Source: Candidatus Udaeobacter sp.
GTDB taxonomy: Bacteria; Verrucomicrobiota; Verrucomicrobiia; Chthoniobacterales; UBA10450
NCBI GenBank assembly: GCA_036278715.1
Contig: DASUKN010000105.1
Coordinates: 6,042 to 70,041, forward strand
Length of the DNA: 64,000 nt
Direction: 5' to 3'
The translations under genes and the position numbers were made by a program. The notes under the pieces were generated by a model that was given only the letters and a program-made list of their open reading frames with translations, was not told the origin of the DNA and did no database searches. This document shows, piece by piece, positions 2,245 through 18,845 of this stretch (positions are counted from its first letter, which is position 1; each line of letters begins with the position of its first letter).

Positions 2245-2340
2245 GTAGCGCGGGCGTCTCGCTTGCGAATCGTACCAGCCGGAGCCATACGCTACTTTCT
2301 TGAATCCAAACCCCACGTTTGCGCATCCTAATGGAACATC

Positions 2341-3625: not shown

Positions 3626-3897
3626 TTCGACCTAACGGGATCGAGCTGTATCCGGTTCAGTGGCCGCTGGCATGATCTGATGGCACAACACTTCGAGAAG
3701 GCCACTCGTGTTGCGTCACGAAACGCCTAACGAGACCATTACCACCACGCAGAGCTCCTGTTCGAGTTCATTTCGCCAGCAGATTCTACTACGCCTTGTC
3801 TCCATCTCGCAGATCAACGATACTCTCGCCCCCGGGTATTTCCGTCAGTTGATGGCATGCGATCACGACGTACAATCACGAATGGGGAGGATAACCC

Positions 3898-4446
3898 ATG
3901 CGTCATGCGATTTGTTGGGCGGTTTTCGGGCTGCTCTTTTCGAGCGGAACGCTGTTTTCGCAACCCCATGGTGTCTCGCGGCCATCGGCACGACCGCGTG
4001 TGAAAGTGGTTGCGGTGCGTGGGTTCATCCCGCGTCCGGCGGTGTTCCTTCCGTACTGCATGCCCGTCACAGTTCCCTATCCTGTTCAATACCCTGATCC
4101 TGTTCCGTATCCCGTCTGGAATTTCATCCCGTCATCGCCCGCATACGTGTTTGTCGGCAGCGCTTCGCCTTCGCACCCGCAGTTGGTGTTTAAGGACGGA
4201 ACGACGTACACGGTAACTGACTACTGGCGCGTCAACGATCGGCTCAACTTCATCACGACCGAAGAGGGTGGCACGAAGTCAGTGCCGCATACGGCGCCGT
4301 TTGAAGACCTTGATGTGCAACGGACCACTGACGCGAATACAGCGCTAGGTTTTCGATTCGTGCTAAGGCAGGAACCGATCGAGCAATGGCTGGAGCACCA
4401 TCGGCAACACGCGCCACGGCGCCACCGGAACGACACGGCTGGCTAA
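3898..4446 (+). CDS. Hypothetical secreted protein, Pro-rich linker
   Basis: GGAGG Shine-Dalgarno about 8 nt upstream of the ATG. Signal peptide MRHAICWAVFGLLFSSGTLFS. PVPYPV repeats, then a C-terminal globular part. Confidence 0.5.
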   Translation: MRHAICWAVFGLLFSSGTLFSQPHGVSRPSARPRVKVVAVRGFIPRPAVFLPYCMPVTVPYPVQYPDPVPYPVWNFIPSSPAYVFVGSASPSHPQLVFKDGTTYTVTDYWRVNDRLNFITTEEGGTKSVPHTAPFEDLDVQRTTDANTALGFRFVLRQEPIEQWLEHHRQHAPRRHRNDTAG

Positions 4447-4508
4447 CTGCGGCATCAATGGACAACCGGCTCCCTCATTATTGTTGTTAGACCAGGCGAG
4501 CAAGAGCG

Positions 4509-4991
4509 ATGCATGGACGCGCAAAGGATCTAATCAGTCAGCTTCATCTGCGGCCCCATCCCGAGGGAGGACATTTCCGGGAGGTTTTCCGATCGTCGCA
4601 CAAGGTGCAGCCGCTGGATGAGAGGTCGGCGCGTTGCGCGTTAACAACGATTTACTTTTTGCTTGCCGAGGGCCAGCACGGGCGCTGGCACCGGGTCGGA
4701 TCCGATGAGGTCTGGCATTTTTATGAAGGAGATCCACTGGAGCTCTATTGGATCGATGACCAGGACATGGTGCATCGAGAGATGCTCGGGACGGGTACTG
4801 CAAACGTTGAGGCGATGTGCGTCGTCCCGGCCGGGTGCTGGCAAGCATCAAGGCCCCTCGGAAAGTACAGCTTGCTGGGATGTACCGTCGCTCCAGGATT
4901 TGACTTTAAGGATTTCGAGATGATCTCCGAGGGATCAGCACTGCTCGGACACATCACATCTCTGGATCCAGCCCTCGCCGAACTCGCCTAG
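4509..4991 (+). CDS. Cupin superfamily protein, DUF985 family
   Basis: N-terminal LHLRPHPEGGHFREVFRS is the signature of DUF985 cupins; size (160 aa) fits. Confidence 0.7.
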   Translation: MHGRAKDLISQLHLRPHPEGGHFREVFRSSHKVQPLDERSARCALTTIYFLLAEGQHGRWHRVGSDEVWHFYEGDPLELYWIDDQDMVHREMLGTGTANVEAMCVVPAGCWQASRPLGKYSLLGCTVAPGFDFKDFEMISEGSALLGHITSLDPALAELA

Positions 4992-5159
4992 AGGTAAATG
5001 CATGATGCTATCGCTCATCGTGTCCCGCACAGGCCGGGAAGAAACCGACAAGAATTTTTGTATACGAAATGCACTCTTGGAAATTGCAGCCATGGGAAGA
5101 GTTTGCGAAGAAAGCTAAAGCTGCCGGGCAATAAACCGGCGGCTCACGATTTTGGCTTC

Positions 5160-5405
5160 ATGAAAACTAAAGTGGTTTTGATGGTCGCTATGGTGACTGG
5201 CCTGCTCTCTTTGGTTGTGGCTGGCTATTGCTTCTGGCTGATGAACGTTCCGCTTTCCTATAGATGGGTGCCCGTCGTCATAACCGGTTTTCTCCTGGGG
5301 ATTTTCGTGTTTGTCATCTCGTTGATCACTTCATTGATCGCTCTCATACAATTGCGTCGATTACCGCGTGCGCCTGATCCTCCGCAGATCAGGTCTATCA
5401 CCTAA
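5160..5405 (+). CDS. Small membrane protein (hypothetical)
   Basis: Internal ATG of ORF 4998..5405 (MKTKVVLMVAMV...). Three hydrophobic helices; the upstream part of the ORF looks non-coding. Confidence 0.4.
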   Translation: MKTKVVLMVAMVTGLLSLVVAGYCFWLMNVPLSYRWVPVVITGFLLGIFVFVISLITSLIALIQLRRLPRAPDPPQIRSIT

Positions 5406-5430
5406 CCAGCCAGCTAAACCGCGACTGACC

Positions 5431-5835
5431 ATGCCAAAAGAATACATTAACCCCGATCACCTTTTCCCCAGCTTGCCACATGGATTTTCCCAGATCGTGG
5501 TCGCCACCGGAAAACGAATCGCGTTCATCTCCGGACAAACGGCCTGGGATGAAGGCAAGAACATTGTTGGCGGAGACAGCGTTCTCGAGCAGGCAAGGCA
5601 AGCGTTCCGTAACGTTAGAAAGGCAATGGAAGCGGTTGGCGGCACGTTAACGGACATTGTCGCTCTGCGAATATACGTCGTGGATTATCAAGCAGAGTGC
5701 GGAACAGCGGTAGGCACAGCTCTACGCGAATGTTTTTCTACAGAGAATCCGCCGGCAAGTACATGGATCGGTGTCCAGGCCCTGGCAGATCCCGAATTTT
5801 TGATCGAGATCGAAGCGACAGCGGTCCTGGACTGA
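5431..5835 (+). CDS. RidA/YjgF/TdcF family reactive-intermediate deaminase
   Basis: Start moved to ATG 5431 (MPKEYINPD). Carries ISGQTAWDEGKNIVGGD..QARQAFRNVRKAMEAVGGTLTDIV..RIYV, typical of the RidA family. Confidence 0.8.
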   Translation: MPKEYINPDHLFPSLPHGFSQIVVATGKRIAFISGQTAWDEGKNIVGGDSVLEQARQAFRNVRKAMEAVGGTLTDIVALRIYVVDYQAECGTAVGTALRECFSTENPPASTWIGVQALADPEFLIEIEATAVLD

Positions 5836-5935
5836 GTCTTTCCGGCCTAACGAATAGACGATTATCGCGTTTGCAATCAAAGCCGAGGTTAACGACCCGC
5901 TCGCTAAGACATTCGCGTTTAGCGAGCAGAAGACG

Positions 5936-6274
5936 ATGTACGGCGGCAAACAGGTTGCCAAAGGCGATACAATCTTTTTGTTCGCAAGCGAGAACCAAGG
6001 CGGTCCGGGTCTCATCGCCAGCGGTATCGTGACCTCGGTCCAACCAACCGCGAAGATGAAGGGAATCGCCCGGCAAGCGCCGCGGGTGAGCATCACTGTC
6101 AAATGCACCGCGCTCGCGAAGCGGCAGCTAGGGCGAAGCGAGCTGAAAGGTTTTTCCAACTGGAACGACGGCCGGCCGGAGACGGAGCTCAATTTCAAAT
6201 TATACCGTCAAGCCACGAACAAAATCATTGGCATCTCCGATGAAGCCACAGCGTTCCTGCATAAGTTATTTTGA
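5936..6274 (+). CDS. Hypothetical protein
   Basis: 112-aa ORF with no recognised motif. The frame stays open and protein-like for about 28 codons upstream without a canonical start (see findings). Confidence 0.4.
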   Translation: MYGGKQVAKGDTIFLFASENQGGPGLIASGIVTSVQPTAKMKGIARQAPRVSITVKCTALAKRQLGRSELKGFSNWNDGRPETELNFKLYRQATNKIIGISDEATAFLHKLF

Positions 6275-6426
6275 TCTCTTCAATGAAGAGCAATTTGGCC
6301 TGACAATTTTTGATTGATTAAATTTTTTGCGTTCTGGTTTTATGACCGCAAAAAAGCTCACTCCCGAGCGCCGTCTCGACAATGGAGTACGGTAATCACG
6401 GGAGCGAGTTTCGGAGGAGATAGCCG

Positions 6427-7032
6427 ATGATCCAGCCATTGATTGTTTTCGCACCGGGTGCGGGTGCGCCTTCCTCGCATCCGTGGATGCAAAATTGGAA
6501 ACGGCGTCTATCCGAAATCGGCGAGGTAGAAACTTTCGACTACGATTACATGCGGGCGGGGCGAAAACGGCCTGATTCGTTGCCGCAACTGATCGCCGCA
6601 CATCGGGCGGCCCTCGCCGCGGCGCGAGAGAAACATCAACCGGAGTCAACATTGCTGATCGGCAAGAGCATGGGCGGGCGAATCGGTTGCCACCTGTCGC
6701 TCGAAGAAAAAGTCGATGGACTGGTTTGTCTTGGCTATCCGCTTCGCGCCATGGGCGATCGTACAAAACTTCGCGACGAGATTTTGCGCGCGCTCAGTAC
6801 GCCTATCCTGTTTGTTCAAGCCACCCGCGACGCGCTATGTCCGCTGGACCTTCTCCAGCGGGTCCGAGCCGGGATGAAAGGGCCAAACATTCTGCACGTT
6901 GTGGAAGGCGGCGACCACTCCCTGCGTGTGGCGAAGCGCCAGCTTCACGCGGCAGGTGAAACGCAGGAAGATGTAGATGAAAGAATATTCCACGCGATCA
7001 CTGCGTTCGTTCGCAATCTGAAATCTACGTAA
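6427..7032 (+). CDS. Alpha/beta hydrolase (dienelactone-hydrolase/KANL3-like family)
   Basis: GGAGGAG SD upstream. GKSMGGR nucleophile elbow (GxSxG), later D and H (GGDHSL). About 200 aa. Confidence 0.7.
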   Translation: MIQPLIVFAPGAGAPSSHPWMQNWKRRLSEIGEVETFDYDYMRAGRKRPDSLPQLIAAHRAALAAAREKHQPESTLLIGKSMGGRIGCHLSLEEKVDGLVCLGYPLRAMGDRTKLRDEILRALSTPILFVQATRDALCPLDLLQRVRAGMKGPNILHVVEGGDHSLRVAKRQLHAAGETQEDVDERIFHAITAFVRNLKST

Positions 7033-7075
7033 GCACTCGGACACTTTAAAAATTCTCGTTAATCGGAATGCGCGG

Positions 7076-7106
7076 CGGCGATTTGTGATCGCCGACTTTC
7101 TATTTT
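7076..7106 (+). terminator. Possible rho-independent terminator after the hydrolase gene
   Basis: cggcgat-ttgtg-atcgccg stem-loop followed by a T-rich tract (actttctatttt). A second hairpin, cggcgct-cacag-agcgccg, lies at ~7114-7132. Confidence 0.3.
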
Positions 7107-7247
7107 GGATGTTCGGCGCTCACAGAGCGCCGTTACAAAAGAGTCAAAGCAACGCGGGCACGGCCATGTGTCCTCGCATCGCTTTTTGAATGGCATCGTG
7201 TCACTATTTTGCTGCGATGGATCAGAGCGCATGAAAAGGAATGTGAC

Positions 7248-8120
7248 ATGAGAAAAACCGAGCAAGTTTCTGTCCGCTCTGGCCAGGTCGAGTTCGTAAA
7301 GGTCGGTACGGATGCGTGGAGATGGCGCGATGTCTATCGCTGGCTGCTCGGCCTGCGATGGCCGCAGTTCGCGGCGTTCGTTGCTTCCCTTTACGTCGGA
7401 CTCAACCTGTTGTTCGCCCTGCTTTACAGTTTACAACAGGACAGCATTGCTGGAACGACTGGTGGGAGTTGGTTCTATGATTGCTTTTTTTTCAGCGTTC
7501 AAACACTCGCCACGGTCGGCTACGGCCACATGTATCCGCAGACGCTTTACGGACACATCGTCAGCACTGTCGAGATCATGACCGGGCTATTTTTGCTGGC
7601 GGTGATGACGGGTTTAATCTTCGTCCGGTTTTCGCGCCCGATTGCGCGCGTGGTGTTCAGTAATTGCATCGTCATTGCGCCCTTGAACGGCAAGCCCACA
7701 CTGATGGTGCGAATCGGCAATGAGAATCAGCACAGCATGGTCGAGGCTGAGTTCCGAATCATGTTCTCGCGCGACGAACCGTTACAAGAAGGTGGGGATT
7801 TCCGTTACTTTTACGTTCTCAAGCTGCATTTCGATCGGGTAACCCTTTTTCCTGCAGCATTGACATTGCGCCATACAATCGATGAGAAGAGTCCGCTTTT
7901 CGGCGCAACGGCTGAAACTCTCACCAACTGCCGCGCGCTGTTTATGGTGTCAGTGATTGGCATCGATCCGGTGATCGCAGCGTCGGTGCAAACCCAAAAG
8001 GATTATTCCTGGCGCGATATTCAGTTCGGCCATCGCTTCGTTGAGATCTATACCGACCACGGTGAGGGCCGGCTTACCGTGGATTACGGAAGGCTCCACG
8101 ACACCGAAGCCGCGGAGTAA
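7248..8120 (+). CDS. Inward-rectifier potassium channel, KirBac family
   Basis: Start moved to ATG 7248. Two TM helices flank the selectivity filter TLATVGYGHMYP. Kir-type cytoplasmic beta-rich C-terminal domain. Confidence 0.85.
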   Translation: MRKTEQVSVRSGQVEFVKVGTDAWRWRDVYRWLLGLRWPQFAAFVASLYVGLNLLFALLYSLQQDSIAGTTGGSWFYDCFFFSVQTLATVGYGHMYPQTLYGHIVSTVEIMTGLFLLAVMTGLIFVRFSRPIARVVFSNCIVIAPLNGKPTLMVRIGNENQHSMVEAEFRIMFSRDEPLQEGGDFRYFYVLKLHFDRVTLFPAALTLRHTIDEKSPLFGATAETLTNCRALFMVSVIGIDPVIAASVQTQKDYSWRDIQFGHRFVEIYTDHGEGRLTVDYGRLHDTEAAE

Positions 8121-8146
8121 AGTTTCGCCACGCAGGCGTCTGTTCA

Positions 8147-8389
8147 CTACTCGGGCAGGAAAAGAATCATCCGGGCAAATTGCGCCATCCCGGTGACCAG
8201 TTGGAACACGATTCCGGCGAAAAACGGCCAGAACGCGGCGAGCACTGCGGTGTTGTACAATTGCAAAAGCATCGCTGCGGTGCCGAAGGCGCTGAACACA
8301 AAAAAAATCACCCGCGTGAGGCGCTCACGCTGGGCATTTGCCAGATTCAAGCGGCGGAACATTCTCATAATTCCCGTCATGAACGACAT
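8147..8389 (-). CDS. Small membrane protein (hypothetical)
   Basis: 80 aa with two hydrophobic helices. Overlaps the upstream ORF by 13 nt. Confidence 0.35.
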   Translation of the reverse strand: MSFMTGIMRMFRRLNLANAQRERLTRVIFFVFSAFGTAAMLLQLYNTAVLAAFWPFFAGIVFQLVTGMAQFARMILFLPE

Positions 8390-8643
8390 CGTGACAACAA
8401 TAAGATGCCGCTACACCACCTCCATACCCCTGGTGGCATGGGTTCAATCGTTACTAACACCAATCCCAACATGGAAAGAGCCAGCGGCAGAATGGAATTC
8501 GCCAGCAAAAGACGTAACCGCAGTTTGTCGACGCCGGACCATTCGTGAACAGCTTCACGGCGAAAGACAACTACCACGCCCGCGAAACCGGCGAGTGCGA
8601 CTGCTATCTGCGCGGCAATACCAAGCGCTTCGCCTGCTTCCAT
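8377..8643 (-). CDS. Small membrane protein (hypothetical)
   Basis: 88 aa with two hydrophobic helices. May be one gene with 8147..8389 if there is a frameshift. Confidence 0.35.
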   Translation of the reverse strand: MEAGEALGIAAQIAVALAGFAGVVVVFRREAVHEWSGVDKLRLRLLLANSILPLALSMLGLVLVTIEPMPPGVWRWCSGILLLSRCRS

Positions 8644-8683
8644 GGTCGATGTTTAACAAAAAGGCGACGATTCGATAACTTTC

Positions 8684-9076
8684 TCAAAGGCCCAACCTCG
8701 CAAACTCCGCAGGCGACAAAGTCGTCGGCTGGAGATAAACGTGATAAGAATCCCACATCGCAGTAAAGATGTAGGTTGCGCCCGGGCGCACGTTCACAGT
8801 AAGCGAGCTCGGCTCACTCATGATGATGTTCGGCACGGCCGAAATTGTCAGGAGATGGCGCCCGGCGGAAATCGGGTGGTCATATTTACGACCCTGAACA
8901 ATATTCGCGACCGTTCGGCCATCGATCTTGAGATTGGCGGCAACGTTCCAGCCGAAATTTGCTACCCTGATCACAATGAGTCGACCACTTGGTTCGGTGG
9001 CGCCGTCGGCTGACACTGCAGAGAAAAAAACAAGAATCAGAGAAAATCTGGCAATATAGCTGCATGCGGTGCTCAT
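8684..9076 (-). CDS. Hypothetical secreted beta-rich protein
   Basis: Signal peptide MSTACSYIARFSLILVFFSAVSADG; no motif assigned. Confidence 0.45.
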   Translation of the reverse strand: MSTACSYIARFSLILVFFSAVSADGATEPSGRLIVIRVANFGWNVAANLKIDGRTVANIVQGRKYDHPISAGRHLLTISAVPNIIMSEPSSLTVNVRPGATYIFTAMWDSYHVYLQPTTLSPAEFARLGL

Positions 9077-9115
9077 GAATTCGTTATAGCACGATCACGA
9101 TCGCACCCGCACGCG

Positions 9116-9835
9116 TTAAATCCGCCAGAGCGAGCGATGCGTGCCGAACTCGGAGATTTCCCCGGAGGTACGTCTGCTGACGTAAATGGTAATGGTAATG
9201 ACGCTAACGAACGTGCCCACGAATACCATTGCTACAAACCACGACGGAATATGCCCGATGCGTAGTGCGTGATAAAAGGATGACACGTCCTTGATCGGCG
9301 CGGTGGCGTGCAGAAATACTTTTGTTAGCCACGCCATCAGGATCAGGATGAAAATGAACACGTAATTGCGTTTCATCCGGCGCCCGATGGCCTCCAGCTT
9401 TGTGATTTTGAAGCTGGGCAAAATCAGATCTTCGCATACCAGTTTTTTCCATTCGCCTTGAAGCAGTTCGCGATTTTCCATGACCATCGGGACAAGAAAA
9501 TGCGCTTCGAGCATGCGAATGCGCGCGCGAAAAGCATCATAGAAACGGTACCTGCGCGATTCGATCCAGAGCAGCACGGCAACGATCGCCAGGTTAAAAA
9601 AGAAAATAATGTGCGGCACTTCGCGGGTGGAAAAAGCGATTGTAATAATGGCAGTGCTGCTGGTGATGGCCCAGTTGGTGGTCACATCCAGTCGTTGCCG
9701 CCAAACCATGCTTCGCCCCAGCTCGCCCCGATAAAAGTGCGACATTGCGTTGACATAGCCCGGATCATAAATGCTCCGCTGCAACGAAACTGTCCGTTCC
9801 TCTTTCGGCGCTGCCGCTGTATCGTGAGTTGCCAC
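9116..9835 (-). CDS. DUF2270 family integral membrane protein
   Basis: HFYRGELGRSMVWRQRLDVTTNWAI matches my recollection of the conserved DUF2270 N-terminal block. Four to five TM segments. Confidence 0.6.
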   Translation of the reverse strand: MATHDTAAAPKEERTVSLQRSIYDPGYVNAMSHFYRGELGRSMVWRQRLDVTTNWAITSSTAIITIAFSTREVPHIIFFFNLAIVAVLLWIESRRYRFYDAFRARIRMLEAHFLVPMVMENRELLQGEWKKLVCEDLILPSFKITKLEAIGRRMKRNYVFIFILILMAWLTKVFLHATAPIKDVSSFYHALRIGHIPSWFVAMVFVGTFVSVITITIYVSRRTSGEISEFGTHRSLWRI

Positions 9836-9898
9836 AGCTTGCTATTTAACTGGATAACTGCGTTTACTGCATAATCCAATAAATCTCTCCACACCCTG

Positions 9899-10366
9899 AT
9901 GCCTATTGCCCTTCCAGATCTGCTAACTCAGGAAAAGGTGATCCTCCGGTTGCGCTCGCGAAAGCCAGCGAACGCGATTCGCGAGATCGTGGACGTGCTC
10001 GCGTCCGATATCGGCGGAAGGAAGATCCAAAACCCCGAAGCTTTTCTCGAGCAAGTGCTCGCTCGCGAGGAGACGCATCCCAGCGTGGTAGAAAACAGCG
10101 CCGCGTTTCCACATGCCCGCACTGAGATGGTTGATGAAATTGTGATCGGCGTAGGGCGCAGCCGGGCCGGCATTGCGTTCGGAGAAAATCAACAGCGAGC
10201 GCATCTCATTTTCGTGATCGCCGTTCCAGAGCGTTTGATTAGCGATTACCTGGTCTGCGTCGGCACCCTGGCGCGTCTGGTGAAAGACGACACGATCCGG
10301 TCGAGATTGCTTAACGCGGAAACGCCTCACGAATTCGTCGAAGCGTTAACGACTGAAACTCTGTAG
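9899..10366 (+). CDS. ptsN: PTS EIIA type-2 domain protein (PtsN-like nitrogen regulatory EIIA)
   Basis: 155 aa. LL.QEKVILRL...K..AIRE, then the phosphorylatable His in AFPHART, then HLIFVIAVP. Confidence 0.7.
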   Translation: MPIALPDLLTQEKVILRLRSRKPANAIREIVDVLASDIGGRKIQNPEAFLEQVLAREETHPSVVENSAAFPHARTEMVDEIVIGVGRSRAGIAFGENQQRAHLIFVIAVPERLISDYLVCVGTLARLVKDDTIRSRLLNAETPHEFVEALTTETL

Positions 10367-10416
10367 CGGGGCCCGGCGACCCGGCCGGCAGCAGCGATGC
10401 CTGCCAGAAGATCCGC

Positions 10417-11742
10417 TTACCCCAATTGACGAATCGCTCGAAGCGCGGTCTCAATCTCCTGCGGCGTGTTAACGACATTGCAGGCCAGACGCGCATACGA
10501 TACGCGGTACGGAGTGGTAGAAGCGACGATGCGTTGAGCAAGAAGACGCTCTACGACTGCTTCCGGTTTCATCCCTTTCACATCGAAACAGACTATGCCG
10601 GCCGAAAGCTTTTCATCACGCGGTGTGTAGAGCTGGATGTTCGGCATGTGGGCGAGTCCTTCTTTCATTTGAGCATTGAGTTCGTGTGTGCGGGCAGTGA
10701 TTCGTGCCGGCCCGATGTCCTGATGAAACCGAATTGCCTGCGGTAACGCCCAAAAATGTTCGAACGCTTGAAAGCCTCCCGGTGAAAACCATGCCGCTCG
10801 CGCCGAGGAGCCCGGCTCACGTTCCTGCTCCCACGCGGCAAAAAGATCGGGCGAACTAAAGGATGGAATCACTGGACGCATTCTTTTCCAAAGCTCGGGC
10901 TTCGCCCAAACGAACCCGGTCCCGCGCGGACCGAACAGCCATTTGTGGGTGCCGGCCGCAAACGCGTCGCATCCCAGCGCGGTAATCTTTGGATCTTCCA
11001 CGCCAATGCCGTGCACGCCGTCCACGATCAGCAGCACACGATTTTTCTCATCGCGCCCGCGGTTCACGTCGGCCAAAGCGGCGGCGATCCGCGGGATAGG
11101 CAGGCGCAGCCCACTGCTGGAATGCACCCAGGTGACTCCGACCGCTCGCGTCTTTGGCCCAATCGCTTTGCGAATGCGGTCGCTCATTTCATCCGGCGAA
11201 ATTGATTCGTACGAATCGAAGAGGGAAATCTTGCGCCAGGTCGCGCCGCAACGTTCCGTAGCAAGCCGGATCGATTCGTGATGCACATAGTGATCCTGCG
11301 TAGTAGTCAGGATCTCGTCGCCTTCGCGCAAAGGCAGCCCGTGATAGAGGAGAGCGAGACCGGTTGTGGTGTTCTGCGTCAGCGCTATGTCCTGGGCGTC
11401 GCCGCCAATGTAATTGGCGATGGCGCGGCAGACCTGCAACGGGATGTTCTCGTCAGACTGCACGAACATCGCGTTCTCAACCGTAAGCAACGGGTTGGCA
11501 TCGAGCTTCGCCCGGTATTGCTCGATTGCCTGACGCACAGGTCTGGGATGAGAAGCGAGGAAAAACAACGCCAGATGAATGTGATCAGGAGCCAGATCAA
11601 ACTGCCGTCGCACTGATTCCCAGTCCTGGAAATCAACCGGAACGTTCTTCTGTGTTTTAGGCTCGGCGAGCGCCGATGAGAGCGTTCCGGCAACGAGCGA
11701 CAACGAACCACGGATGAGAAAATTGCGGCGAGTTAACGACAT
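10417..11742 (-). CDS. Aminotransferase class V-fold PLP enzyme with twin-arginine signal peptide
   Basis: Start moved to ATG 11742 (MSLTRRNFLIRGSLSLVAGTL, a Tat motif). PLP-lysine block GTHKWLFGPRGTG. Cysteine desulfurase / isopenicillin-N-epimerase-like. Confidence 0.75.
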   Translation of the reverse strand: MSLTRRNFLIRGSLSLVAGTLSSALAEPKTQKNVPVDFQDWESVRRQFDLAPDHIHLALFFLASHPRPVRQAIEQYRAKLDANPLLTVENAMFVQSDENIPLQVCRAIANYIGGDAQDIALTQNTTTGLALLYHGLPLREGDEILTTTQDHYVHHESIRLATERCGATWRKISLFDSYESISPDEMSDRIRKAIGPKTRAVGVTWVHSSSGLRLPIPRIAAALADVNRGRDEKNRVLLIVDGVHGIGVEDPKITALGCDAFAAGTHKWLFGPRGTGFVWAKPELWKRMRPVIPSFSSPDLFAAWEQEREPGSSARAAWFSPGGFQAFEHFWALPQAIRFHQDIGPARITARTHELNAQMKEGLAHMPNIQLYTPRDEKLSAGIVCFDVKGMKPEAVVERLLAQRIVASTTPYRVSYARLACNVVNTPQEIETALRAIRQLG

Positions 11743-11916
11743 AAGTTTTTCCTTTGTTTGACCGTTCAGTAAGTAAATCGATTGCGCGCAGGAAGCGATG
11801 GAATTATACCGGCGAGTCTGTAGTCGCCTCTCTGCGAGACCCGCTGCCGAGGCTGCTAACGTGCAGGATGTACGCCCCGCACAACGAGGCGACAACACGG
11901 GCGGCGGTTTGTAGGC

Positions 11917-13740
11917 CTAACGAGAGCGCGTTTTCCGGGGTGGGCCCAATACCGGTCCGCCACACGTTGCTTTTGGTCCTTTGATGTCAGAGACCTGATC
12001 GTAGCGGAGCGTCTTCATCGTCGCGTTCACGCGTTCGGTCAGTTCGGTGAACGATACATCCGTCTCGCGCGCCGCCTGCGCTTTACGAAATTCTTTGGCC
12101 AGCGCGTACGTGAACACTCCATACCCGATCGTGCCGTGGTGATATTCATAGGCGTAGCCGCTCTCCTGACACGCGGTTAACACCACCGGCATATACGGCC
12201 CGCGCCGCTCGCGTGGCGCTTTCCGGTACTGCGTCGCCGTTTGGTTCTCACGAAGACTCATCGCCGTGCCGAGTTTTTTCGTGCTGCAGTTGCGGCCCAT
12301 ATATTTTTGCCGGAGCTCCCGGCTGCCGCCAAAATCGGGGTTGAGATTTCGAAGGTCCCGCTCTTCCCACATTTGTTCCGCTTTGTTCCAGCGGAGCATT
12401 CGGTGCCGAATATCATCCGGAGGTGTAACGGCGCGAATCTTCCGCGCACCGTCCCGGGTCAGGCCGCCTGAGTGGCAGCAATCAAAAATCGCGAAAAATT
12501 TCGCGGAGTACGGGAGCGCGCTGTAGTACCGCAGGAAATCATCGTCGGTGATAGCGCTGTCTTGCGTCCAATGAAAATCGTACGGCACAAGACATTCATC
12601 AACGTGATCAATTTGTTCTGCGGCGTTGTAGTCGGGCAACTGCGCACCATGGCCGCTGTAGTAAAGCACTCGTTCCTGGCCGTCGGCCGTGCCGTCGAGC
12701 AGCCAGTCAATGCGCTCGCGAATTCCTGCAGCCGTGGCGCGCTCGTCTGTTACGACGCGGATATCTTCTGCGTCGAACCCGATTTCCTGCAGCACACTGC
12801 TCATGAGAAATACATCGTTCACGCAGCCTTCCAGACGTGACGCAGGATCGGGATAATCATTTATGCCCACGAGCAAGGCGCGTCGCCGACGTTGTTGCAC
12901 CGAGTTCTGGAATCGTGTGCTTCGAGCAGTCAACGCACGCACGCCGGGTTGTCGCGCGAGCACGCGATACACGCGTTGCCCCGTCAAATCACGTTGCAGG
13001 TACCCCTCATGGCCAGGGAACTGGTTCAAATCAACAACGGCAGCGTGGCCGGCAATGCGGTCGTCCCATGAAATCTCTTCAAACTTCGGGACACGATCGA
13101 GGATTCGATGGGCGAGAACCGGATCGCTTTTGTTAAACAGGTGAAACCAATACTTCTGATTGACGCCATCGATCTTGTTATTGAAATGCGCCGCTTTCAG
13201 GAACGGGTTGGCGATTTGTGAGCCGAACGTTACTAAATATCGGCCCGCGCACGCGTTTTTGTCCTGGTTGGAAAACGCGTCGTAGCAAATAATGCTACCG
13301 AGACTGTGCGCCATGATCACGTCCGGGTCGAACGTGTTGATTCGCTCGATCAAACGTTTTCGTAACGTGGCGCGCAACGCCGCGTTCTGGTCCCACTCCG
13401 CTACCATTCCTGCGTGCCAGCCGTCGGCCGCTTCAGCGACGGGCGTTGCCCAATCCAGCAAGCCGCGACTCGGACGAAACCAGCCGGAAACAGTCTCAGC
13501 AGCGTCCTCGATAGCAGCTCCGACAGGCGCGAAGCCGAGATGCGCCGCAGCGCCGACGTCGCTCAGGAGATTAATTTTTCCCGAAAATAAATTATCGTAG
13601 TCGAAGCGTTCGTAGGTCGGCGCAAACGCAGGATCGAAATATTGGATCCCCGCGGTGATCGCCTCTTCCCATGGTCGTTCCCACGGCTGATTATCAGGAC
13701 GCTCCTGGTGGCCGACTCCGTGAACCAGGAGTATTTTCAT
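11917..13740 (-). CDS. Alpha/beta-hydrolase-like N-terminal domain fused to caspase/metacaspase (peptidase C14) domain
   Basis: N-terminus has MKILLVHGVGH and AHSLGS (GxSxG). C-terminal half has LLVGINDYPD, catalytic His VLYYSGHGAQ and catalytic Cys FAIFDCCHSGG. Confidence 0.8.
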   Translation of the reverse strand: MKILLVHGVGHQERPDNQPWERPWEEAITAGIQYFDPAFAPTYERFDYDNLFSGKINLLSDVGAAAHLGFAPVGAAIEDAAETVSGWFRPSRGLLDWATPVAEAADGWHAGMVAEWDQNAALRATLRKRLIERINTFDPDVIMAHSLGSIICYDAFSNQDKNACAGRYLVTFGSQIANPFLKAAHFNNKIDGVNQKYWFHLFNKSDPVLAHRILDRVPKFEEISWDDRIAGHAAVVDLNQFPGHEGYLQRDLTGQRVYRVLARQPGVRALTARSTRFQNSVQQRRRRALLVGINDYPDPASRLEGCVNDVFLMSSVLQEIGFDAEDIRVVTDERATAAGIRERIDWLLDGTADGQERVLYYSGHGAQLPDYNAAEQIDHVDECLVPYDFHWTQDSAITDDDFLRYYSALPYSAKFFAIFDCCHSGGLTRDGARKIRAVTPPDDIRHRMLRWNKAEQMWEERDLRNLNPDFGGSRELRQKYMGRNCSTKKLGTAMSLRENQTATQYRKAPRERRGPYMPVVLTACQESGYAYEYHHGTIGYGVFTYALAKEFRKAQAARETDVSFTELTERVNATMKTLRYDQVSDIKGPKATCGGPVLGPPRKTRSR

Positions 13741-13743
13741 CGA

Positions 13744-14556
13744 TTAGACCGTGAACGGTTCCTGTTCCTCGAACGAGTAGTTGGCTGGACCCATGGTAAA
13801 ATAATTCGGTGTTTGCGTCGGCGGCATCAGTTTCACGATCGATTTGTGCAACCCGCGGTAATCGCCCTTGAACTTCCCGTTCTTCCAAACGGCGAGCAGC
13901 GTTTGGGTGAACAATCCGTTACGATCGCCGTCCGCGCTGGTCTGGTTATCCTGGCATCCGGAAATTAACAATGCGGTGCCGCGCATCCGGGTTCGCGAAC
14001 TGGAGCGGTGCTGTTGGATTTTGTCGTAGAACTTCTGGTGATCCATGTAAACGCGCAGAGCAACATCGCGCGGCATCATACGCGGACGCACCGGAGTCAT
14101 GCCGAGCGCGGAAAATTGGATGGCCCGCAGCACCGTGCCGCTGTGGCAACTATCGGACAGCACAAAGATCCGCACTCCGCTGACGAATTGCTTCAACGCA
14201 GTGTAAAGCTCGTCATCAATGATTTCTCCATCGTACAAACACCACGTTTCATCGAAGCCGTCCGGTTCTAAATCGTGGCCGGTGTTGGGCACCTGGCCGC
14301 CGTGTCCCGAATAGGTGAGAAAGAAGATATCGTTCCGTTTCAGTTTCGCAGCTGCGGCTTTGATATCAGCGAGGACCCGGTTGCGTGTTGCCTTCTTCGT
14401 CAGGCGCTTGGTTATTTTGGTAAATCCCTGCGATTTCGCCACTGCCTGCATGTCGTTTGCGTCGAATTCGCACGCCGTGAGTTGACCATCCCATCCGCTG
14501 TATTGTTTTGGATCGACGGCGTTGAGACCGATGTGAAGAGACGCTCCAATTGGCAT
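13744..14556 (-). CDS. Caspase family (peptidase C14) protein, stand-alone p20-like domain
   Basis: Start moved to ATG 14556 (MPIGASLHIGLNAVDP). His motif FFLTYSGHGGQ and Cys motif FVLSDSCHSGT. Stop lies 3 nt before the next gene's start. Confidence 0.8.
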   Translation of the reverse strand: MPIGASLHIGLNAVDPKQYSGWDGQLTACEFDANDMQAVAKSQGFTKITKRLTKKATRNRVLADIKAAAAKLKRNDIFFLTYSGHGGQVPNTGHDLEPDGFDETWCLYDGEIIDDELYTALKQFVSGVRIFVLSDSCHSGTVLRAIQFSALGMTPVRPRMMPRDVALRVYMDHQKFYDKIQQHRSSSRTRMRGTALLISGCQDNQTSADGDRNGLFTQTLLAVWKNGKFKGDYRGLHKSIVKLMPPTQTPNYFTMGPANYSFEEQEPFTV

Positions 14557-14798
14557 AAGCCATCCTTTCGTTTTGGACCAGGGCAGGCATTCTGAACCAG
14601 AAGAACACGGCGGCGCAAGATGATTGTCATCTTGAGCTTCGAGCGTCGCATCCGCATGGCTGAGAGAACGCATTTGCACCGTTCGCCGCGACCACGATTC
14701 GAATCAGGGAAGGTACATCTAGGCCGCAATCTGAATCGGCGTCTGGCAGAGATGCTCTACAATCCAAGCAACACTAGACACCTGGTCGCAATTAAAAG

Positions 14799-14828
14799 TT
14801 GACCATCCTTAAGGAAAATCGTTATGCT
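14799..14828 (+). promoter_or_regulatory. Candidate sigma70-like promoter for the thaumatin-like cassette
   Basis: TTGACC, 17-nt spacer, TTATGC(T), about 95 nt upstream of ATG 14925. Lies in the 368-bp divergent region shared with the caspase operon. Confidence 0.25.
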
Positions 14829-14924
14829 CCGGGGAGTGCCAAGTTTTGCAATTCCTGCATTGAAGCGAAACTGCGCTGAGTTCAGCGTCTCTCGCCTTTC
14901 TCCTCGTTAGTCTGTTCGCCATTT

Positions 14925-17900
14925 ATGAAAACACCTCTGCTCAAATCCTCCTCTATTGTTCTGGCGGTCGCCGCTCTCATGGCCGCATTTTTGCCCGTCC
15001 CACTTGCCCGGGCGGCAACCGATCCCCTGATGCCGAAGGGGCCGGGCGGCGTGCAACCGTTCGATCCCAATCCTTCTGCTCCCGATTCGTTAACCCGACG
15101 TTTCATGACGTATGGCGTCGACCCAGACGGCAACCGCATCCCGCTGAAAACGCTGCGAATCACCAATAATACAGCGCATACCGTGTATCCGATCATGCGA
15201 GACCCGAACTCCATCACCATCAGGGGCAGCACGACAATCGGCTTGTATGATCCGTATGACCCGGCACACAAGGAATACCGCGGTTACATCGGTTACGAGG
15301 AGGGCGGAAAATATTTTTTTGGTCTGAAACGCGGCGAGAGCATCCTCGTGAGGCTGCCTCTGGTTTTCTGGAACGGTGCCCGCATTGGCATTGGGACTGA
15401 CGGTCAATATTTGACGCCGACGGGCGATCCAAATCCTCTGCGTTACGATCCGAACTCGCAACGCTCGATTACCAAAGCTGAGACCGGCGAAGATACCATC
15501 TCGAATGGCGTCGTGATGTGGTATCGGGCCGAAGTTTCCAAGGCGCCTAACGACGATACAGAGGATCAGCTCGCGGAATGGACGATTCGCGATCACGTCT
15601 ACCTGGTCAATCCGCAGATCACGGCAAAAACCAACCATGAAATCCCGGATAACCAACTCGTCACGCTGATCAATTATGACGTCTCGAATGTGGATAACCT
15701 CTATCTGCCGCTGGCTATGGAGGCGAACGACGTCTGGGTGGTACCGCAGAAGTCGGGAACAGGGCCGAATGCTAACCGTGACGGCTGGAAACCCGGGTCG
15801 GTGCCGGACGTGTACGGCTGGACTGGCGCCATCAATAACAATGACTTTCTGCAGACGCGGATCCGGGAATTCACCGCCGACAACAATCAACTTCTGGGAG
15901 AATACTTCGGGAAGAAGAAACCGGGCTGGCCCTTCTATAACATTCCGAATCCTACCAACGATCCGACCCCCCCCCGCAAAATCCCCTCCGGCGCCAATGT
16001 CTTCGCACAGAGCCCACTCAAGGCTGTTCCTTCCAGCTATGGCAACGGACAATGGCAGAACGATAAATACATGCTCTCGAGCGGCGGCACCCAACCGATA
16101 AAAGTGAGCATCGGAAATTCGATCACGGTCAATCCAGCGGGAAGCAAAACCTTGAACGTCAATGAGGTGGATCCGGAAATAAGAGAAAAGTTCGCCGCCA
16201 TTGAAGTGGGAGACGTCGTCATCGGTCGCCCGGCCCCTAGCGTCACCAATCCCATTCAAGATGGCACAACCGTTACGGCTGTGAACCCCCCCAGCGGGAA
16301 CCCCCTTAAGTACACCGTTACCTTGAGCAAAGCGTTGGTCGCCCCGAGCGGGAGCTGCACGTTCGAGTTCACGCGGCCCGTCCACGACTACGCCTCCGAG
16401 GCCATGATCAGGCTTTGGTATTCCTGGGCGCAATATTACCTCTTGCACTGGAAAGACCGCACACCGAACGCTTCCACCACGCCGACGCGGATCAAGGGAT
16501 CCATCGGCAAGAATCTGGCGACGCTGTTCTTCAACGAAGCGCATCCCGAGCTAGTCGAAGGCATGGCGGTCACAGGCCCCGGACTGGACGACGCGACGAC
16601 CGAGAAAGGCATCCACCAGGGGAACGCGGTGATTCTGGAGATCGCCAGCGATAAAAAATCGGTCGTCCTGAGTCAGGTGGTAAACACCGATTCAGAGAAT
16701 AAGCCGTTCACCTTCCATCCTCCGCAACCGCTTTGCACCGGAGCAGACAAAACTGGATGCCTGCTCTGGGCTCCCACTGCGGAAGGAGACCCGGGATATC
16801 CGCTCATCGGAGACAAATTCAGTTTTTCTAACGAGCCGGACTGGCACAACCCGTACGAATTCTCGCAGCAAGTCTATTTGATTATGGCGTCGATGAATCA
16901 GATCGGTGAGCCGAACAACGACAGCGTGTCCAAGTTCATGCAAGACATCGTCGGCGCAAACATGGGCTTCATCTTTACCAATCCTGCGAAAAATACTGGC
17001 GATGCCCAGATGGTAATCGCGATGATTCGGGACATGATAAAATCCGTGCTGCGCGGGGTCTGGGATTTCACCAAATTTCCGGATACGGTTGACGACCACG
17101 GCAACCACCTTAAGTGGTATCCAGATCCGAAGGAACACCGCGGCGATCAGCCGTTCAATGTGTTCAACCTCGATCCGTTCGTCTGGTTCGTTCACGTCCA
17201 ACTGGGCTTCTCGGGCTACGGCTTCTCCGTCGACGACGATACCGCCGACGTCGGCGCCGGCGGGGCCTCAGAACTTCAGCTTAGCGTCACTGGCACAGGT
17301 GGCCTCAAAAACAGGAATGCCTGGAGTATCCAGGCGCCGTACGGTCCGGTGAAAAACCAGCGTCTGCAATATTTCGGCCCGGCGAGCTTGAACGGCGATA
17401 CGCTTTATCACGCCATCACCAATGTCAGTGATACCACCCCGATCAAAATCACCACGGAAGGTGAACACCACCTTGCGAATGGCGATAGCGTATTAATTGA
17501 TCAGGTGATCGGCGACAACGCCGCGAATGGCACTTTCAAGATCGGCAATGCCTCGAGGAAAACGTTCGAGTTATTCGATGCCGCTACGGGAACGATTCCG
17601 GTTGCTCCCAGCGGCAACTACGTTAGCGGCGGGAGATGGGCATATCCACTCCATCCGTACGTGGACACCGGCAATGATTTGACGAAGGTTTTTTATCGCG
17701 TCACCGGGGACGATGCCCTTGGCACTTTCGAGGGCACACTGCTCTCCGTCGACGGCGTGGATCGGAACAAAAGCGGGAAAAAATTCCGGGTCTTTCAGCT
17801 GGGTCGCCAGGATGTTGGACGCCTTCTTTTAGACACTGACCTGACCGATGCGAATGGGACCCCGCTGCCCGCCGGCACTTATACGTTCGATTTCTTCGGA

Positions 17901-18236
17901 ATAGCGGACACCGGCAATGGAGTTGGCGGTCCGCCGCCACCCAAAGCTCCTCTTGGCGCCATCCGCGAGGACATTCATGAGGAAATGGATAGGATCTGGA
18001 AGAGGTTGCACCAGCTCGAAAAGCAGAATGGCGAATCTAAACAATCGGCTCGGAAGGAGAGATGGCTGGAAATGCGGATCTCCGTGCTCACAGCCCGGCT
18101 CGAGTATCCGACCGACGAAGTGCTCCAGCAGCTTGAACAACAGCTCGAAGCGCGCGAATCACTTGGCCGTAAAGCGCTGCGCAAGTTCCTGGACCGCCTG
18201 AACACGCGGATAGTCGAGCTACAAAACGGCGGCTAA
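14925..18236 (+). CDS. Large secreted thaumatin-like (PR-5/TLP fold) protein with big insertions and a C-terminal coiled-coil tail
   Basis: Signal peptide MKTPLLKSSSIVLAVAALMAAFLPVPLARA. Ordered TLP motifs: LRITNNTAHTVYPI, GESILV..FWNGARIGIGTDG, LAEWTI, INYDVSNVDNLYLPLAMEA, YGFSVDDDTADV. The last ~95 aa are heptad-rich and shared with the next large gene. Confidence 0.7.
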   Translation: MKTPLLKSSSIVLAVAALMAAFLPVPLARAATDPLMPKGPGGVQPFDPNPSAPDSLTRRFMTYGVDPDGNRIPLKTLRITNNTAHTVYPIMRDPNSITIRGSTTIGLYDPYDPAHKEYRGYIGYEEGGKYFFGLKRGESILVRLPLVFWNGARIGIGTDGQYLTPTGDPNPLRYDPNSQRSITKAETGEDTISNGVVMWYRAEVSKAPNDDTEDQLAEWTIRDHVYLVNPQITAKTNHEIPDNQLVTLINYDVSNVDNLYLPLAMEANDVWVVPQKSGTGPNANRDGWKPGSVPDVYGWTGAINNNDFLQTRIREFTADNNQLLGEYFGKKKPGWPFYNIPNPTNDPTPPRKIPSGANVFAQSPLKAVPSSYGNGQWQNDKYMLSSGGTQPIKVSIGNSITVNPAGSKTLNVNEVDPEIREKFAAIEVGDVVIGRPAPSVTNPIQDGTTVTAVNPPSGNPLKYTVTLSKALVAPSGSCTFEFTRPVHDYASEAMIRLWYSWAQYYLLHWKDRTPNASTTPTRIKGSIGKNLATLFFNEAHPELVEGMAVTGPGLDDATTEKGIHQGNAVILEIASDKKSVVLSQVVNTDSENKPFTFHPPQPLCTGADKTGCLLWAPTAEGDPGYPLIGDKFSFSNEPDWHNPYEFSQQVYLIMASMNQIGEPNNDSVSKFMQDIVGANMGFIFTNPAKNTGDAQMVIAMIRDMIKSVLRGVWDFTKFPDTVDDHGNHLKWYPDPKEHRGDQPFNVFNLDPFVWFVHVQLGFSGYGFSVDDDTADVGAGGASELQLSVTGTGGLKNRNAWSIQAPYGPVKNQRLQYFGPASLNGDTLYHAITNVSDTTPIKITTEGEHHLANGDSVLIDQVIGDNAANGTFKIGNASRKTFELFDAATGTIPVAPSGNYVSGGRWAYPLHPYVDTGNDLTKVFYRVTGDDALGTFEGTLLSVDGVDRNKSGKKFRVFQLGRQDVGRLLLDTDLTDANGTPLPAGTYTFDFFGIADTGNGVGGPPPPKAPLGAIREDIHEEMDRIWKRLHQLEKQNGESKQSARKERWLEMRISVLTARLEYPTDEVLQQLEQQLEARESLGRKALRKFLDRLNTRIVELQNGG

Positions 18237-18579
18237 GAAGGCATTGAGAACCATTCGAACCGCCGGAGCACAGCAATAGCCTAACGAGTAGGTCAAGTTC
18301 CAGGTTTAGTGAAATGCGGAATTCGCCAACGCTGACGAACGCCTCAAGAGTATTCATCGCTGTCCTTGTAGGTCTCTCGCTCAGTACGGAGGGACAATCG
18401 CCATCCCCCCCGATTTATTCCAGAGTGTCGGAGTCGATGCTCCCTCCCAATGTTGTCATCTCGTTAAGCGAGGTGAACCGGTTGTTCCCGGAAGTCACGC
18501 ACGAAGCGAGTACCGGGCAGAACTTGACTGCAGTCGGCAATCCCAAAGCGACAAGGAGCGTCATCTACACCAATAGCGA
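17931..18579 (+). repeat. Copy A of a ~650-bp duplicated module (3' coiled-coil coding end, spacer, 5' part of the small ORF)
   Basis: Aligns base-for-base with 21257..21897. Example shared string: cctaacgagtaggtcaagttc[c/g]aggtttagtgaaatgcggaattcgccaacgctgacgaacgcct. Confidence 0.85.
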
Positions 18580-18658
18580 ACCGGCAATGAGATTTTCGAG
18601 GGCACCGTCAGTCAAACCTGAACACGGATCCCGAGATAGCCGCGTGATTGCAGCTTAA
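18314..18658 (+). CDS. Truncated/diverged paralogue of the 196-aa partner ORF (possible pseudogene)
   Basis: The first ~88 aa (MRNSPTLTNASRVFIAVLVGLSLSTEGQ...SVIYTNS) are near-identical to 21632..22222. Similarity ends abruptly at ~18579. Confidence 0.45.
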   Translation: MRNSPTLTNASRVFIAVLVGLSLSTEGQSPSPPIYSRVSESMLPPNVVISLSEVNRLFPEVTHEASTGQNLTAVGNPKATRSVIYTNSEPAMRFSRAPSVKPEHGSRDSRVIAA

Positions 18659-18845
18659 TGCAAACGGAAAACAGATTACTCAGCTGAGGAATTGCGGTGA
18701 GTGGCGGCGGCGGGAATGTAATTCTCTCCGTGTGGTGTCGAGTTTGAACGATGGTTTTGTTTGGAATTCTCTCAAAGCCTTCGCGGAATTGACATTGAAC
18801 AAGTCTACTGTGAAGATCGCCTGCTCCCTTCGCCTTGTTCGTTTT

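Follow-up and report, generated by a model that had tools for sequence, protein, structure and literature searches.

What might a bacterium do with two caspase-superfamily proteases that are encoded side by side, when one of them is joined to a second enzyme? The question is raised by a 64,000-nucleotide stretch of Candidatus Udaeobacter sp. (contig DASUKN010000105.1, positions 6,042 to 70,041; hereafter the window), in which a small peptidase C14 gene is followed by a gene whose 607-amino-acid (aa) product combines a predicted alpha/beta-hydrolase domain with a second C14 domain. To our knowledge, the role of bacterial metacaspases has been an open question since their discovery. We propose that the fusion protein is a single-chain, sensor-less version of the caspase plus alpha/beta-hydrolase effector module that would be licensed by proteolysis, a reading in which we place about even confidence. 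The components and the logic of such a module are already known; not described in the literature that we found are the joining of this family of hydrolases with a metacaspase-type domain in the absence of a sensor, the wide chromosomal distribution of the fusion, and its recurrent pairing with the GSU0716 family. At this locus a GSU0716-type enzyme and another metacaspase are linked to a family of hydrolases shown in 2025 to be death effectors that a protease activates.

Two adjacent genes encode C14 peptidases

The locus consists of two co-directional open reading frames (ORFs) on the minus strand, the small C14 gene upstream and the hydrolase-C14 fusion gene downstream, with the sizes and the 3-nt spacing given by the original prediction, which had been made from the sequence without database searches. 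The junction reads GTC TAA tcg ATG, leaving 3 nt (13741-13743) between stop and start. The features discussed below are as follows.

13744-14556, minus strand: small metacaspase gene, 270 aa plus stop, GSU0716/3BIJ family, supported by the ORF, Pfam C14 and a 3BIJ match
11917-13740, minus strand: gene for the hydrolase-metacaspase fusion (607 aa plus stop), in translational coupling with the small gene
12889-13740, minus strand: predicted N-terminal alpha/beta-hydrolase domain, aa 1-284 of the fusion
13420-13530, minus strand: disordered lid loop, aa 71-107 of the fusion, inside a helical insertion (58-137), seen in both structural models
11920-12888, minus strand: C-terminal metacaspase-type C14 domain, aa 285-607 of the fusion
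14557-14924, no strand assigned: 368-bp region between genes, upstream of the small caspase, in which the promoter presumably lies; its opposite flank is a variable insertion

Both proteins match Peptidase_C14 (PF00656, gathering cut-off 21.4 bits), the fusion over aa 285-585 with 104.2 bits (E 1e-29) and the small protein with 82.8 bits (E 4e-23), and the intact dyads and motifs on which the original prediction rested are present in each. The hydrolase and C14 domains account for all 607 aa of the fusion. As had also been foreseen, no signal peptide or transmembrane segment was found in either protein, the 19-residue Kyte-Doolittle maxima being 1.25 and 0.96. The G+C content of the locus is unremarkable. 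Each gene has thousands of homologues at 43-96% identity, which, together with the invariance of the catalytic residues in 83 of 83 fusions, shows that neither ORF arose by chance and both are genuine genes. Metagenome-assembled genomes (MAGs) of Candidatus Udaeobacter or Chthoniobacterales come closest, at 88-91% identity. A GTG start for the small gene (311 aa, extending to 14679) was rejected in favour of the ATG at 14556, because homologues are 270-280 aa long and a ribosome-binding motif, AAAGGA, precedes that ATG.

The N-terminal hydrolase domain

Aa 1-284 of the fusion gave no match in Pfam, NCBIfam or PADLOC, and a profile search of the PDB with this domain returned 0 matches, even at E<=10. 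We therefore turn to the AlphaFold models, one of the domain built on 22 diverse homologues (predicted local distance difference test, pLDDT, 83.7; predicted template modelling score, pTM, 0.83) and one of the full-length fusion (pLDDT 83, pTM 0.77). The domain is modelled around a six-stranded sheet. The oxyanion pair His7-Gly8 comes directly after the first strand (2-7; N-terminus MKILLVHGVGH), Ser146 (13303-13305) occupies the turn that connects strand 141-145 with helix 147-158, within an A-H-S-L-G elbow (AHSLGS in the window), Asp206 (13123-13125) follows strand 197-203, and His232 (13045-13047) follows strand 220-225. As modelled, this order of elements is that of a canonical alpha/beta-hydrolase, the fold expected from the sequence. 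Moreover, the HG oxyanion motif and all three triad residues are invariant across 83 of 83 species-level fusion proteins.

Sub-threshold signals from individual family members point in the same direction, with Abhydrolase_6 detected in 5 of 22 (best E 0.0022) alongside Ser_hydrolase and LCAT, and a stand-alone homologue from Leptolyngbya matches Pfam PGAP1 at 29.6 bits, against a cut-off of 24.3. A Foldseek comparison, suggested alongside the original prediction, did recover lipases, but with weak scores and among mixed folds: the best hydrolase match has an E value of 5.7e-4 and a TM score of 0.36-0.41, and lipases, DDHD and LCAT proteins are interspersed with azoreductase- and flavodoxin-like folds. 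We consider the domain to be a hydrolase because of the order of the modelled triad, the weak Abhydrolase_6, Ser_hydrolase and LCAT signals, and its profile homology to PGAP1-like hydrolases, which together support the assignment that had been made for the first ~280 aa. The empty Pfam, NCBIfam and PDB sequence searches, and the TM scores of at most 0.41 shared with flavodoxin-like folds, would also suit a degenerate domain that is not an enzyme at all but serves the metacaspase as a regulator or sensor. We regard this as extremely improbable, given a catalytic set that is both invariant and correctly placed in the model, and a homology that is specific to PGAP1-like hydrolases.

Homology to stand-alone, protease-coupled hydrolases

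Relatives of the domain that stand alone were found through a lenient tblastn search of plasmids, in which they appeared as weak matches. They are ~282-297-aa genes from Streptomyces and Leptolyngbya, labelled 'hypothetical protein' or 'serine peptidase', and each overlaps a giant gene by 4 nt (exemplar loci L091, L092 and L093). The Leptolyngbya giant (L092) carries a Peptidase_C14 domain (aa 15-234) with TPR, HTH and PIN domains, and the Streptomyces giants (L091, L093) show by eye an N-terminal caspase-like dyad pattern, VHIVGHG...LDVCYAG, followed by a STAND NTPase and WD40 repeats. When the N-terminal 290 aa of a Streptomyces giant were compared by hhalign with the fused C14 profile, to see whether they are a caspase, the outcome was negative (1.8%), and the likeness there is at the level of the motif. 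At the Leptolyngbya locus (1943-10414, Leptolyngbya boryana plasmid AP018204.1), genes for Multiubiquitin, an E1-like DUF6791-ThiF protein and DUF6527 precede the hydrolase and its C14-TPR-HTH-PIN giant; a ubiquitin-like conjugation cassette thus adjoins the protease-effector module.

Compared with single stand-alone proteins, the fused N-terminal domain aligned with hhalign probabilities of 98.6% (E 1e-15, 230 columns), 98.0% and 96.4%, and a family-against-family comparison (112 fused domains, 118 stand-alone proteins) gave 99.4% (E 6e-22, 242 columns). An unrelated Abhydrolase_11 protein from the same window, used as a negative control, gave 5%. The stand-alone family comprises more than 5,596 matches, most of them from actinobacteria and cyanobacteria, under labels such as 'serine peptidase', 'PGAP1-like' and 'GPI inositol-deacylase'; none of the best 120 matches of its profile is from Lysobacter.

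The properties of these stand-alone genes correspond to those of a known class of effector. Where caspase domains occur in VMAP/GAP1 conflict systems, an alpha/beta-hydrolase gene is 'always' found next to them (Kaur et al. 2020, PMC7159879), and the LcCaspase of Lysobacter capsici cuts the ~297-aa LcHydrolase zymogen at Arg73/Gly and Arg117/Gly, in or near its lid (Evans et al. 2025 preprint, PMC12642450). The resulting fragments are toxic, and LcHydrolase is lipase- or oligopeptidase-like by HHpred (PMC12642450). We infer that the N-terminal domain is homologous to the effector hydrolases of these two studies, with LcHydrolase matched by length, partners, taxonomy and motifs only. The link to conflict and cell death that had been suggested for the locus, then left without a named system, is thereby supported and can be given a name.

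The likeness to this module extends to a homologous hydrolase with a Ser-Asp-His triad and PGAP1- or lipase-like character, to its coupling with a caspase-superfamily protease, and to an Arg-Gly pair in the lid region. In contrast to it, the hydrolase and protease are here one polypeptide, the protease is a metacaspase-type C14 domain with a p10 region and a putative Ca2+ site, there is neither a STAND, WD40, TPR or VMAP sensor nor a defence-island context, and a second, small metacaspase gene is attached. Cyanobacterial orthocaspases (MaOC1, PMC7935541) are similar in being prokaryotic C14 proteases for which cutting after basic residues has been predicted or shown, and in sometimes lying near toxic modules; they differ in that they typically lack a recognizable p10 and have other C-terminal domains, with no hydrolase fusion described. 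A survey of prokaryotic caspase architectures likewise lists no such fusion (PMC3501461), because Pfam does not detect the N-terminal domain. The ~2,000 clusters (at 50% identity) that carry it are labelled just 'caspase family protein', which makes it an unannotated domain family.

The two metacaspases

The small protein aligns end to end with the Geobacter sulfurreducens protein GSU0716 (PDB 3BIJ), residues 1-270 against 1-277 (E 1.7e-92), and on this alignment is its orthologue, a bacterial type-I metacaspase. Its dyad is intact, with His85 (14302-14304) in FFLTYSGHGGQ and Cys137 (14146-14148) in FVLSDSCHSGT, and by alignment it also has the S1-pocket residues Cys29, Asp32 and Asp135, the Ca-site-like residues Asp102, Asp114 and Asp115, and a p10 motif, SGCQDNQTSAD, at aa 199-209. 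The family is large, with more than 7,800 matches and 56-60% identity across phyla. In our literature search we found no functional study of GSU0716, nor a function or partner for it, and 3BIJ is a structural-genomics entry. The crystal structure dates from 2007. GSU0716 (GsMC1) has been classed as a 'bacterial type I metacaspase' consisting of p20 and p10 without a prodomain (Choi and Berges 2013, PMC3734836), and the small protein shares this organization, the dyad and the p10 motif SGCQDNQ(T/L)S, differing in that it is translationally coupled to a hydrolase-metacaspase fusion.

The dyad of the fused C14 domain is equally intact, with His364 (12649-12651; VLYYSGHGAQ) and Cys422 (12475-12477; FAIFDCCHSGG) both conserved in 83 of 83 fusions. 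Its closest relatives in sequence are AtMC4 and AtMC9 (~1e-21), followed by TbMCA2 and Yca1 (~1e-16); in structure, Foldseek ranks AtMC9 and AtMC4 best (E 1e-15, TMt 0.66), then 3BIJ, TbMCA2, Yca1 and MALT1. The best structural matches are therefore plant type II metacaspases, a type reported to be absent from bacteria (PMC3734836). In TbMCA2 the S1 pocket is formed by Cys92, Asp95, Ser156 and Asp211, and the Ca2+ site by Asp173, Asp189, Asp190 and Asp220 (PMC4357240). The pocket residues align with Cys306, Asp309, Ser362 and Asp420 of the fusion, with both aspartates invariant (83/83), and the first three Ca2+-site residues with Asp381 (72/83), Asp399 (83/83) and Asp400 (48/83). A fourth candidate, Asp430, falls just beyond the aligned block and is present in 37 of 83, with Glu in a further 22. 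From these residues the fused domain is predicted to be an Arg/Lys-specific protease of metacaspase type, cleaving after Arg or Lys, and is probably Ca2+-dependent.

Compared with eukaryotic metacaspases (AtMC4, AtMC9, TbMCA2, Yca1), the domain shares the fold, the DCCHSG motif and an acidic S1 pocket, and has aspartates that would correspond to their four-Asp Ca2+ site, whereas it is bacterial and fused to a hydrolase, and its p20-p10 linker of ~100 aa (aa 425-520) lies between those of type I (~30) and type II (~160). This linker contains a flexible loop (425-431) with Arg429 in 82 of 83 members, and an invariant Arg436/PPDDIRHRxLxW motif. In having a long linker with conserved basic residues it resembles the type II metacaspases that cleave themselves there, and it is plausible from this conservation that Arg429 and Arg436 are autoprocessing sites.

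The lid loop and a model for licensing

Aa 71-107 of the fusion are disordered (pLDDT <50 in both models) and form its only long disordered segment, whereas the inter-domain linker, residues 263-285, is helical and confidently modelled. Cleavage in the lid is for this reason likelier than cleavage between the two domains, which had been raised originally as a possible action of the small caspase. Within the loop, Arg92 (codon 13465-13467) is kept in 105 of 112 members and is followed by Gly in 65 and Asp in 27. Across the family the lid motif is [ST]-R-G-[LFI]-x6-10-[RK]-W-x-A-G-M-V-A-Q, with two basic sites ~12 residues apart, and lid positions 92, 93 and 107 do not differ between fusions with and without a small-caspase partner. 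The stand-alone family has two invariant lid glycines ~32 residues apart, and the residue before each is Arg in cyanobacteria and Gln in actinobacteria. LcHydrolase in turn has two basic sites, 44 residues apart, compared with the closer pair of the fused family and the one site of the window protein. The bond between Arg92 and Gly93 is thus a candidate activation cleavage site.

A comparison of these elements enabled us to propose a model in which the N-terminal domain, a serine hydrolase of lipase or PGAP1 type, would be held latent by its helical lid insertion. The metacaspase may be activated when envelope damage or infection raises the Ca2+ level in the cytosol, and the exposed lid loop would then be cut after Arg92 (Arg-Gly), with a second cut at [R/K]-Trp108 in most members of the family. 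It is plausible that this cleavage occurs in trans, through either the C14 domain of another protomer or the co-translated GSU0716-type metacaspase, the latter being an optional second tier, initiator or amplifier, recruited by some lineages including that of the window. Lid cleavage would license the hydrolase to attack an ester substrate, probably a membrane lipid, resulting in growth arrest or cell death. If cleavage at Arg92 does occur, the fusion would provide a minimal, one-protein model of how a protease-gated effector is licensed, a concrete substrate for a bacterial metacaspase, and a candidate bacterial counterpart of initiator/executioner caspase logic.

The fusion family and its pairing with the small metacaspase

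All of the best 80 genome loci encode full-length fusions. They span Verrucomicrobiota, Planctomycetota, Alpha-, Beta-, Gamma- and Deltaproteobacteria, Gemmatimonadota, Chloroflexota, Zixibacteria and others, the proteobacterial carriers including Bradyrhizobium, Pseudomonas, Cupriavidus, Geomonas and Sulfuriferula. An exhaustive profile search returned 1,966 clusters when the cut-off was E<=1e-3, and 236 when it was E<=1e-30. Stand-alone members within this family were considered and rejected, the short matches being mostly truncated or frameshifted fusions, and in every longer architecture examined the C14 domain directly follows the N-terminal domain. Some members are further fused (P0292, P0343, P0313, P0349, P0282) to an N-terminal PLC-type phosphoesterase (PF04185), a C-terminal PLD-like domain or a FAD_binding_4/ALO oxidase, and would be multi-effector proteins.

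The two genes were found paired at 19 of 85 loci, 12 in the Udaeobacter group and 7 elsewhere, and always co-directionally and in immediate adjacency. At every Udaeobacter-clade locus the small metacaspase lies immediately upstream, with gaps of 3-17 nt. In the remaining pairs (L027, L032, L033, L034, L060, L086 and L089, the last of which came from a reciprocal look-up of a small-caspase homologue) the orthologue is 52-84% identical and may be upstream or downstream. No small-caspase orthologue occurs elsewhere within the 10-kb flanks on either side of the fusions. On a neighbour-joining tree of the fusions, the pairs are spread over six or more separate clades with unpaired sister taxa, in Verrucomicrobiota, Alpha-, Beta- and Deltaproteobacteria, and Chloroflexota. 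Seen from the other side, two distant small caspases are solitary (P0196, P0192), one lies beside a C14+FGE-sulfatase gene (P0197), and one is followed by a fusion (P0174). The adjacency is non-random and the link between the genes is real but facultative, because strict adjacency recurs in separate clades while many of the genes are solitary. The neighbourhood conservation on which the original prediction had hung thus holds as recurrent adjacency, but for a minority of loci, and the pair as a system is kept in the Udaeobacter clade and at least five others without being fixed.

One locus is instructive with regard to how the pair evolves. At L086 (10804-12612, Chthoniobacterales MAG JBBQRI010000001.1) the flanks are 78-91% identical to the window, and the fusion is 29% identical in the N-terminal domain and 48% in the C14 domain, grouping with that of L089 in a deep, separate clade. 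Judged by these identities, the fusion has been replaced in situ beside a conserved small metacaspase, and a swapped fusion is also seen at L032; the swap at L086 points towards conflict-type dynamics.

It could still be argued that the genes merely adjoin each other, with no link in function, and that their products act independently, since most fusions are solitary and distant small caspases are solitary or sit beside a different C14 fusion. We consider this very unlikely in view of the 3-nt spacer, the strictness of the adjacency wherever the pair recurs, and the retention at L086 and L032 of the conserved small caspase beside a swapped fusion. A further elaboration of our model would make the pair a self-contained, sensor-less cascade, in which a GSU0716-type 'initiator' and the fused 'executioner' metacaspase respond to a Ca2+ influx-type signal and the cut at Arg92 frees a membrane-lipid-degrading hydrolase, as a vertically inherited, chromosomal, damage-triggered death or repair programme. 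This elaboration is doubtful, and we put it forward tentatively. Were it true, it would give the 3BIJ-family type-I metacaspases a first function, and would place such a programme in many bacteria that live freely, among them Udaeobacter, a genus abundant in soil.

Among 123 immediate neighbours of solitary fusions, the commonest are themselves proteases: C14 (6), C11 clostripain (5) and astacin (3). The Peptidase_C11 neighbour, a cytoplasmic-looking, Arg-specific clan-CD protease, is found at L041, L042, L043, L049 and one more locus, and the astacin-like metalloprotease at L062, L076 and L077. Apart from LysR regulators (4 of 123), these positions hold no conserved non-protease neighbours. 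Near the solitary-type small caspase P0197, locus L087 (1-2545 and 6965-9490) encodes a CHAT-nSTAND-WD40 giant and, convergently, the C14+FGE-sulfatase protein, so that several caspase-superfamily genes are clustered there.

Genomic context and alternative roles

The window is core chromosome, carrying genes for methylmalonyl-CoA mutase, a BamA-type Omp85 protein, TatC, Cu/Zn superoxide dismutase, an amidase and ABC transporters, and at the syntenic locus the fusion gene is present in all Udaeobacter-clade genomes sampled. PADLOC returned isolated generic matches in the window, both proteins matching just its generic 'caspase' model and no system, and together with Pfam it revealed no gasdermin, TIR, NACHT/STAND, CHAT or cas partner genes among the 46 window ORFs. 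The absence of such partners had been noted from the outset. The defence setting entertained at the same time did not materialize, as the locus is not in a defence island, and PADLOC, which had been suggested as a means of naming the system, supplied no name.

This context bears directly on the possibility of a dedicated anti-phage abortive infection system, in which the small metacaspase or the fusion itself senses infection and the hydrolase kills the cell, a mechanism that would be common to our model. Homologous hydrolase-protease modules are anti-phage effectors (PMC12642450), and a sensor-less caspase alone has been reported to protect E. coli from phages. The patchiness of the pairing across the tree and the cassette swap at L086, which is of a kind typical for immune loci, are in keeping with such a role. 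Nonetheless, we think a dedicated anti-phage system unlikely. No named system was recognized in its housekeeping surroundings, the fusion is constant at one locus throughout the sampled Udaeobacter clade and has no sensor domain, the immediate neighbours at 66 distant loci show no enrichment of defence genes, and no full-length member occurs on 72,556 plasmid or 50,697 phage records. The matches in those records are to C14 only and cover <=53% of the query; all are <60% identical to it, and those in the records listed 27-38%.

The same observations lend themselves to a physiological, non-lethal role, which we judge to be rather improbable as well. Yeast Mca1 and plant MC4 have proposed roles in stress proteostasis or regulated protein processing. 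By analogy, the metacaspases here would serve stress proteostasis or protein processing, and the hydrolase would be a constitutively active, ungated esterase or lipase of that pathway, for example in the turnover of envelope lipids or lipoproteins. A stable core-genome context without a sensor, absence from the mobile elements searched, a distribution across many phyla that takes in free-living Bradyrhizobium, Pseudomonas and Cupriavidus, and a putative Ca2+ site like that of damage-responsive eukaryotic metacaspases would all be accommodated. Against this, the specific relatives of the N-terminal domain are protease-gated death effectors, the PLC- and PLD-type co-fusions suggest a destructive effector, in-situ replacement as at L086 would be unusual for a housekeeping gene, and it is difficult to see, if no proteolysis takes place, why an Arg within a lid loop that is long and disordered should be near-invariant.

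Returning to licensing by lid cleavage, the lipid-directed character of the PLC- and PLD-type co-fusions and of the PGAP1 and LCAT signals argues for the model, and a number of observations weigh against it. The absence from plasmids and phages and the lack of defence-gene neighbours noted above belong here, and a syntenic core genome in Udaeobacter fits a physiological as well as a suicide role. No STAND, WD40, TPR or VMAP/vWA-MoxR sensor was found in the window or among the neighbours of distant members. Given the core-genome context and the missing sensor, the role might lie in suicide against viruses, in a response to damage or in physiology that is not lethal. Some 90% of distant fusions lack the small caspase (~10% are paired), which means that this protein is not essential to the mechanism. 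The homology was computed to proteins that fit the description of LcHydrolase, with LcHydrolase itself compared by description only, and the fused C14 domain proved not to belong to the lineage of the caspase that partners the stand-alone hydrolases (E 0.011 over 51 residues). In the lid, the window Arg92-Gly93 aligned with Leptolyngbya Arg117-Gly118 in one hhalign run and not in the family-against-family comparison, the alignment of this region being unstable. Moreover, the Udaeobacter clade has lost the second basic site, position 107 being Gly by way of an insertion (AEAADG-W), and the double-cleavage mechanism therefore cannot apply here unchanged. Finally, the full-length AlphaFold model does not dock the lid loop in the active site in cis.

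Surrounding genes

On the 3' side of the pair lie genes for a class-V aminotransferase with a Tat signal, a PTS EIIA-like protein, DUF2270, a Kir-type K+ channel and Abhydrolase_11, in an order that is syntenic in most Udaeobacter relatives. The aminotransferase (10417-11898, minus strand, probable start 11742) has the twin-arginine signal MSLTRRNFLIRGSLSLVAG and would be an exported pyridoxal phosphate enzyme. We do not count this Aminotran_5 gene as belonging to the module: most Udaeobacter relatives have it, but L001, L007 and L012 do not, and ~170 nt separate it from the fusion.

On the other side, the 368-bp region shared with a divergent cassette is as originally described, but the co-regulation that had been suggested is unsupported, since the cassette is an insertion that L007, L008, L012 and L086 lack. 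In 14557-14924 the minus strand gave no sigma-70-like match and terminators were not in excess, promoter and terminator counts being equal to the shuffle expectation. The 'thaumatin-like' label that the cassette had been given was not borne out either, its two large proteins of 1103 and 968 aa having no significant Pfam match and none to thaumatin.

The cassette itself (14925-22222, 7.4 kb) is a lineage-specific insertion between a metallo-beta-lactamase (MBL)-fold gene (22320-23168) and the small caspase, and in the four genomes without it the MBL-fold gene adjoins the small caspase directly (around 9835-9986). Other relatives hold parts of it, with one copy of the large gene at L011 and the small ORF only at L009, L013 and L014. 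In the window it is a tandem duplication, in which the two large proteins share a near-identical C-terminal coiled-coil tail of ~100 aa (LGAIREDIHEEMDRI...NTRIVELQ) and each is followed by an ORF beginning MRNSPTLTNA.RVFIAVL.GLSLSTEGQ.

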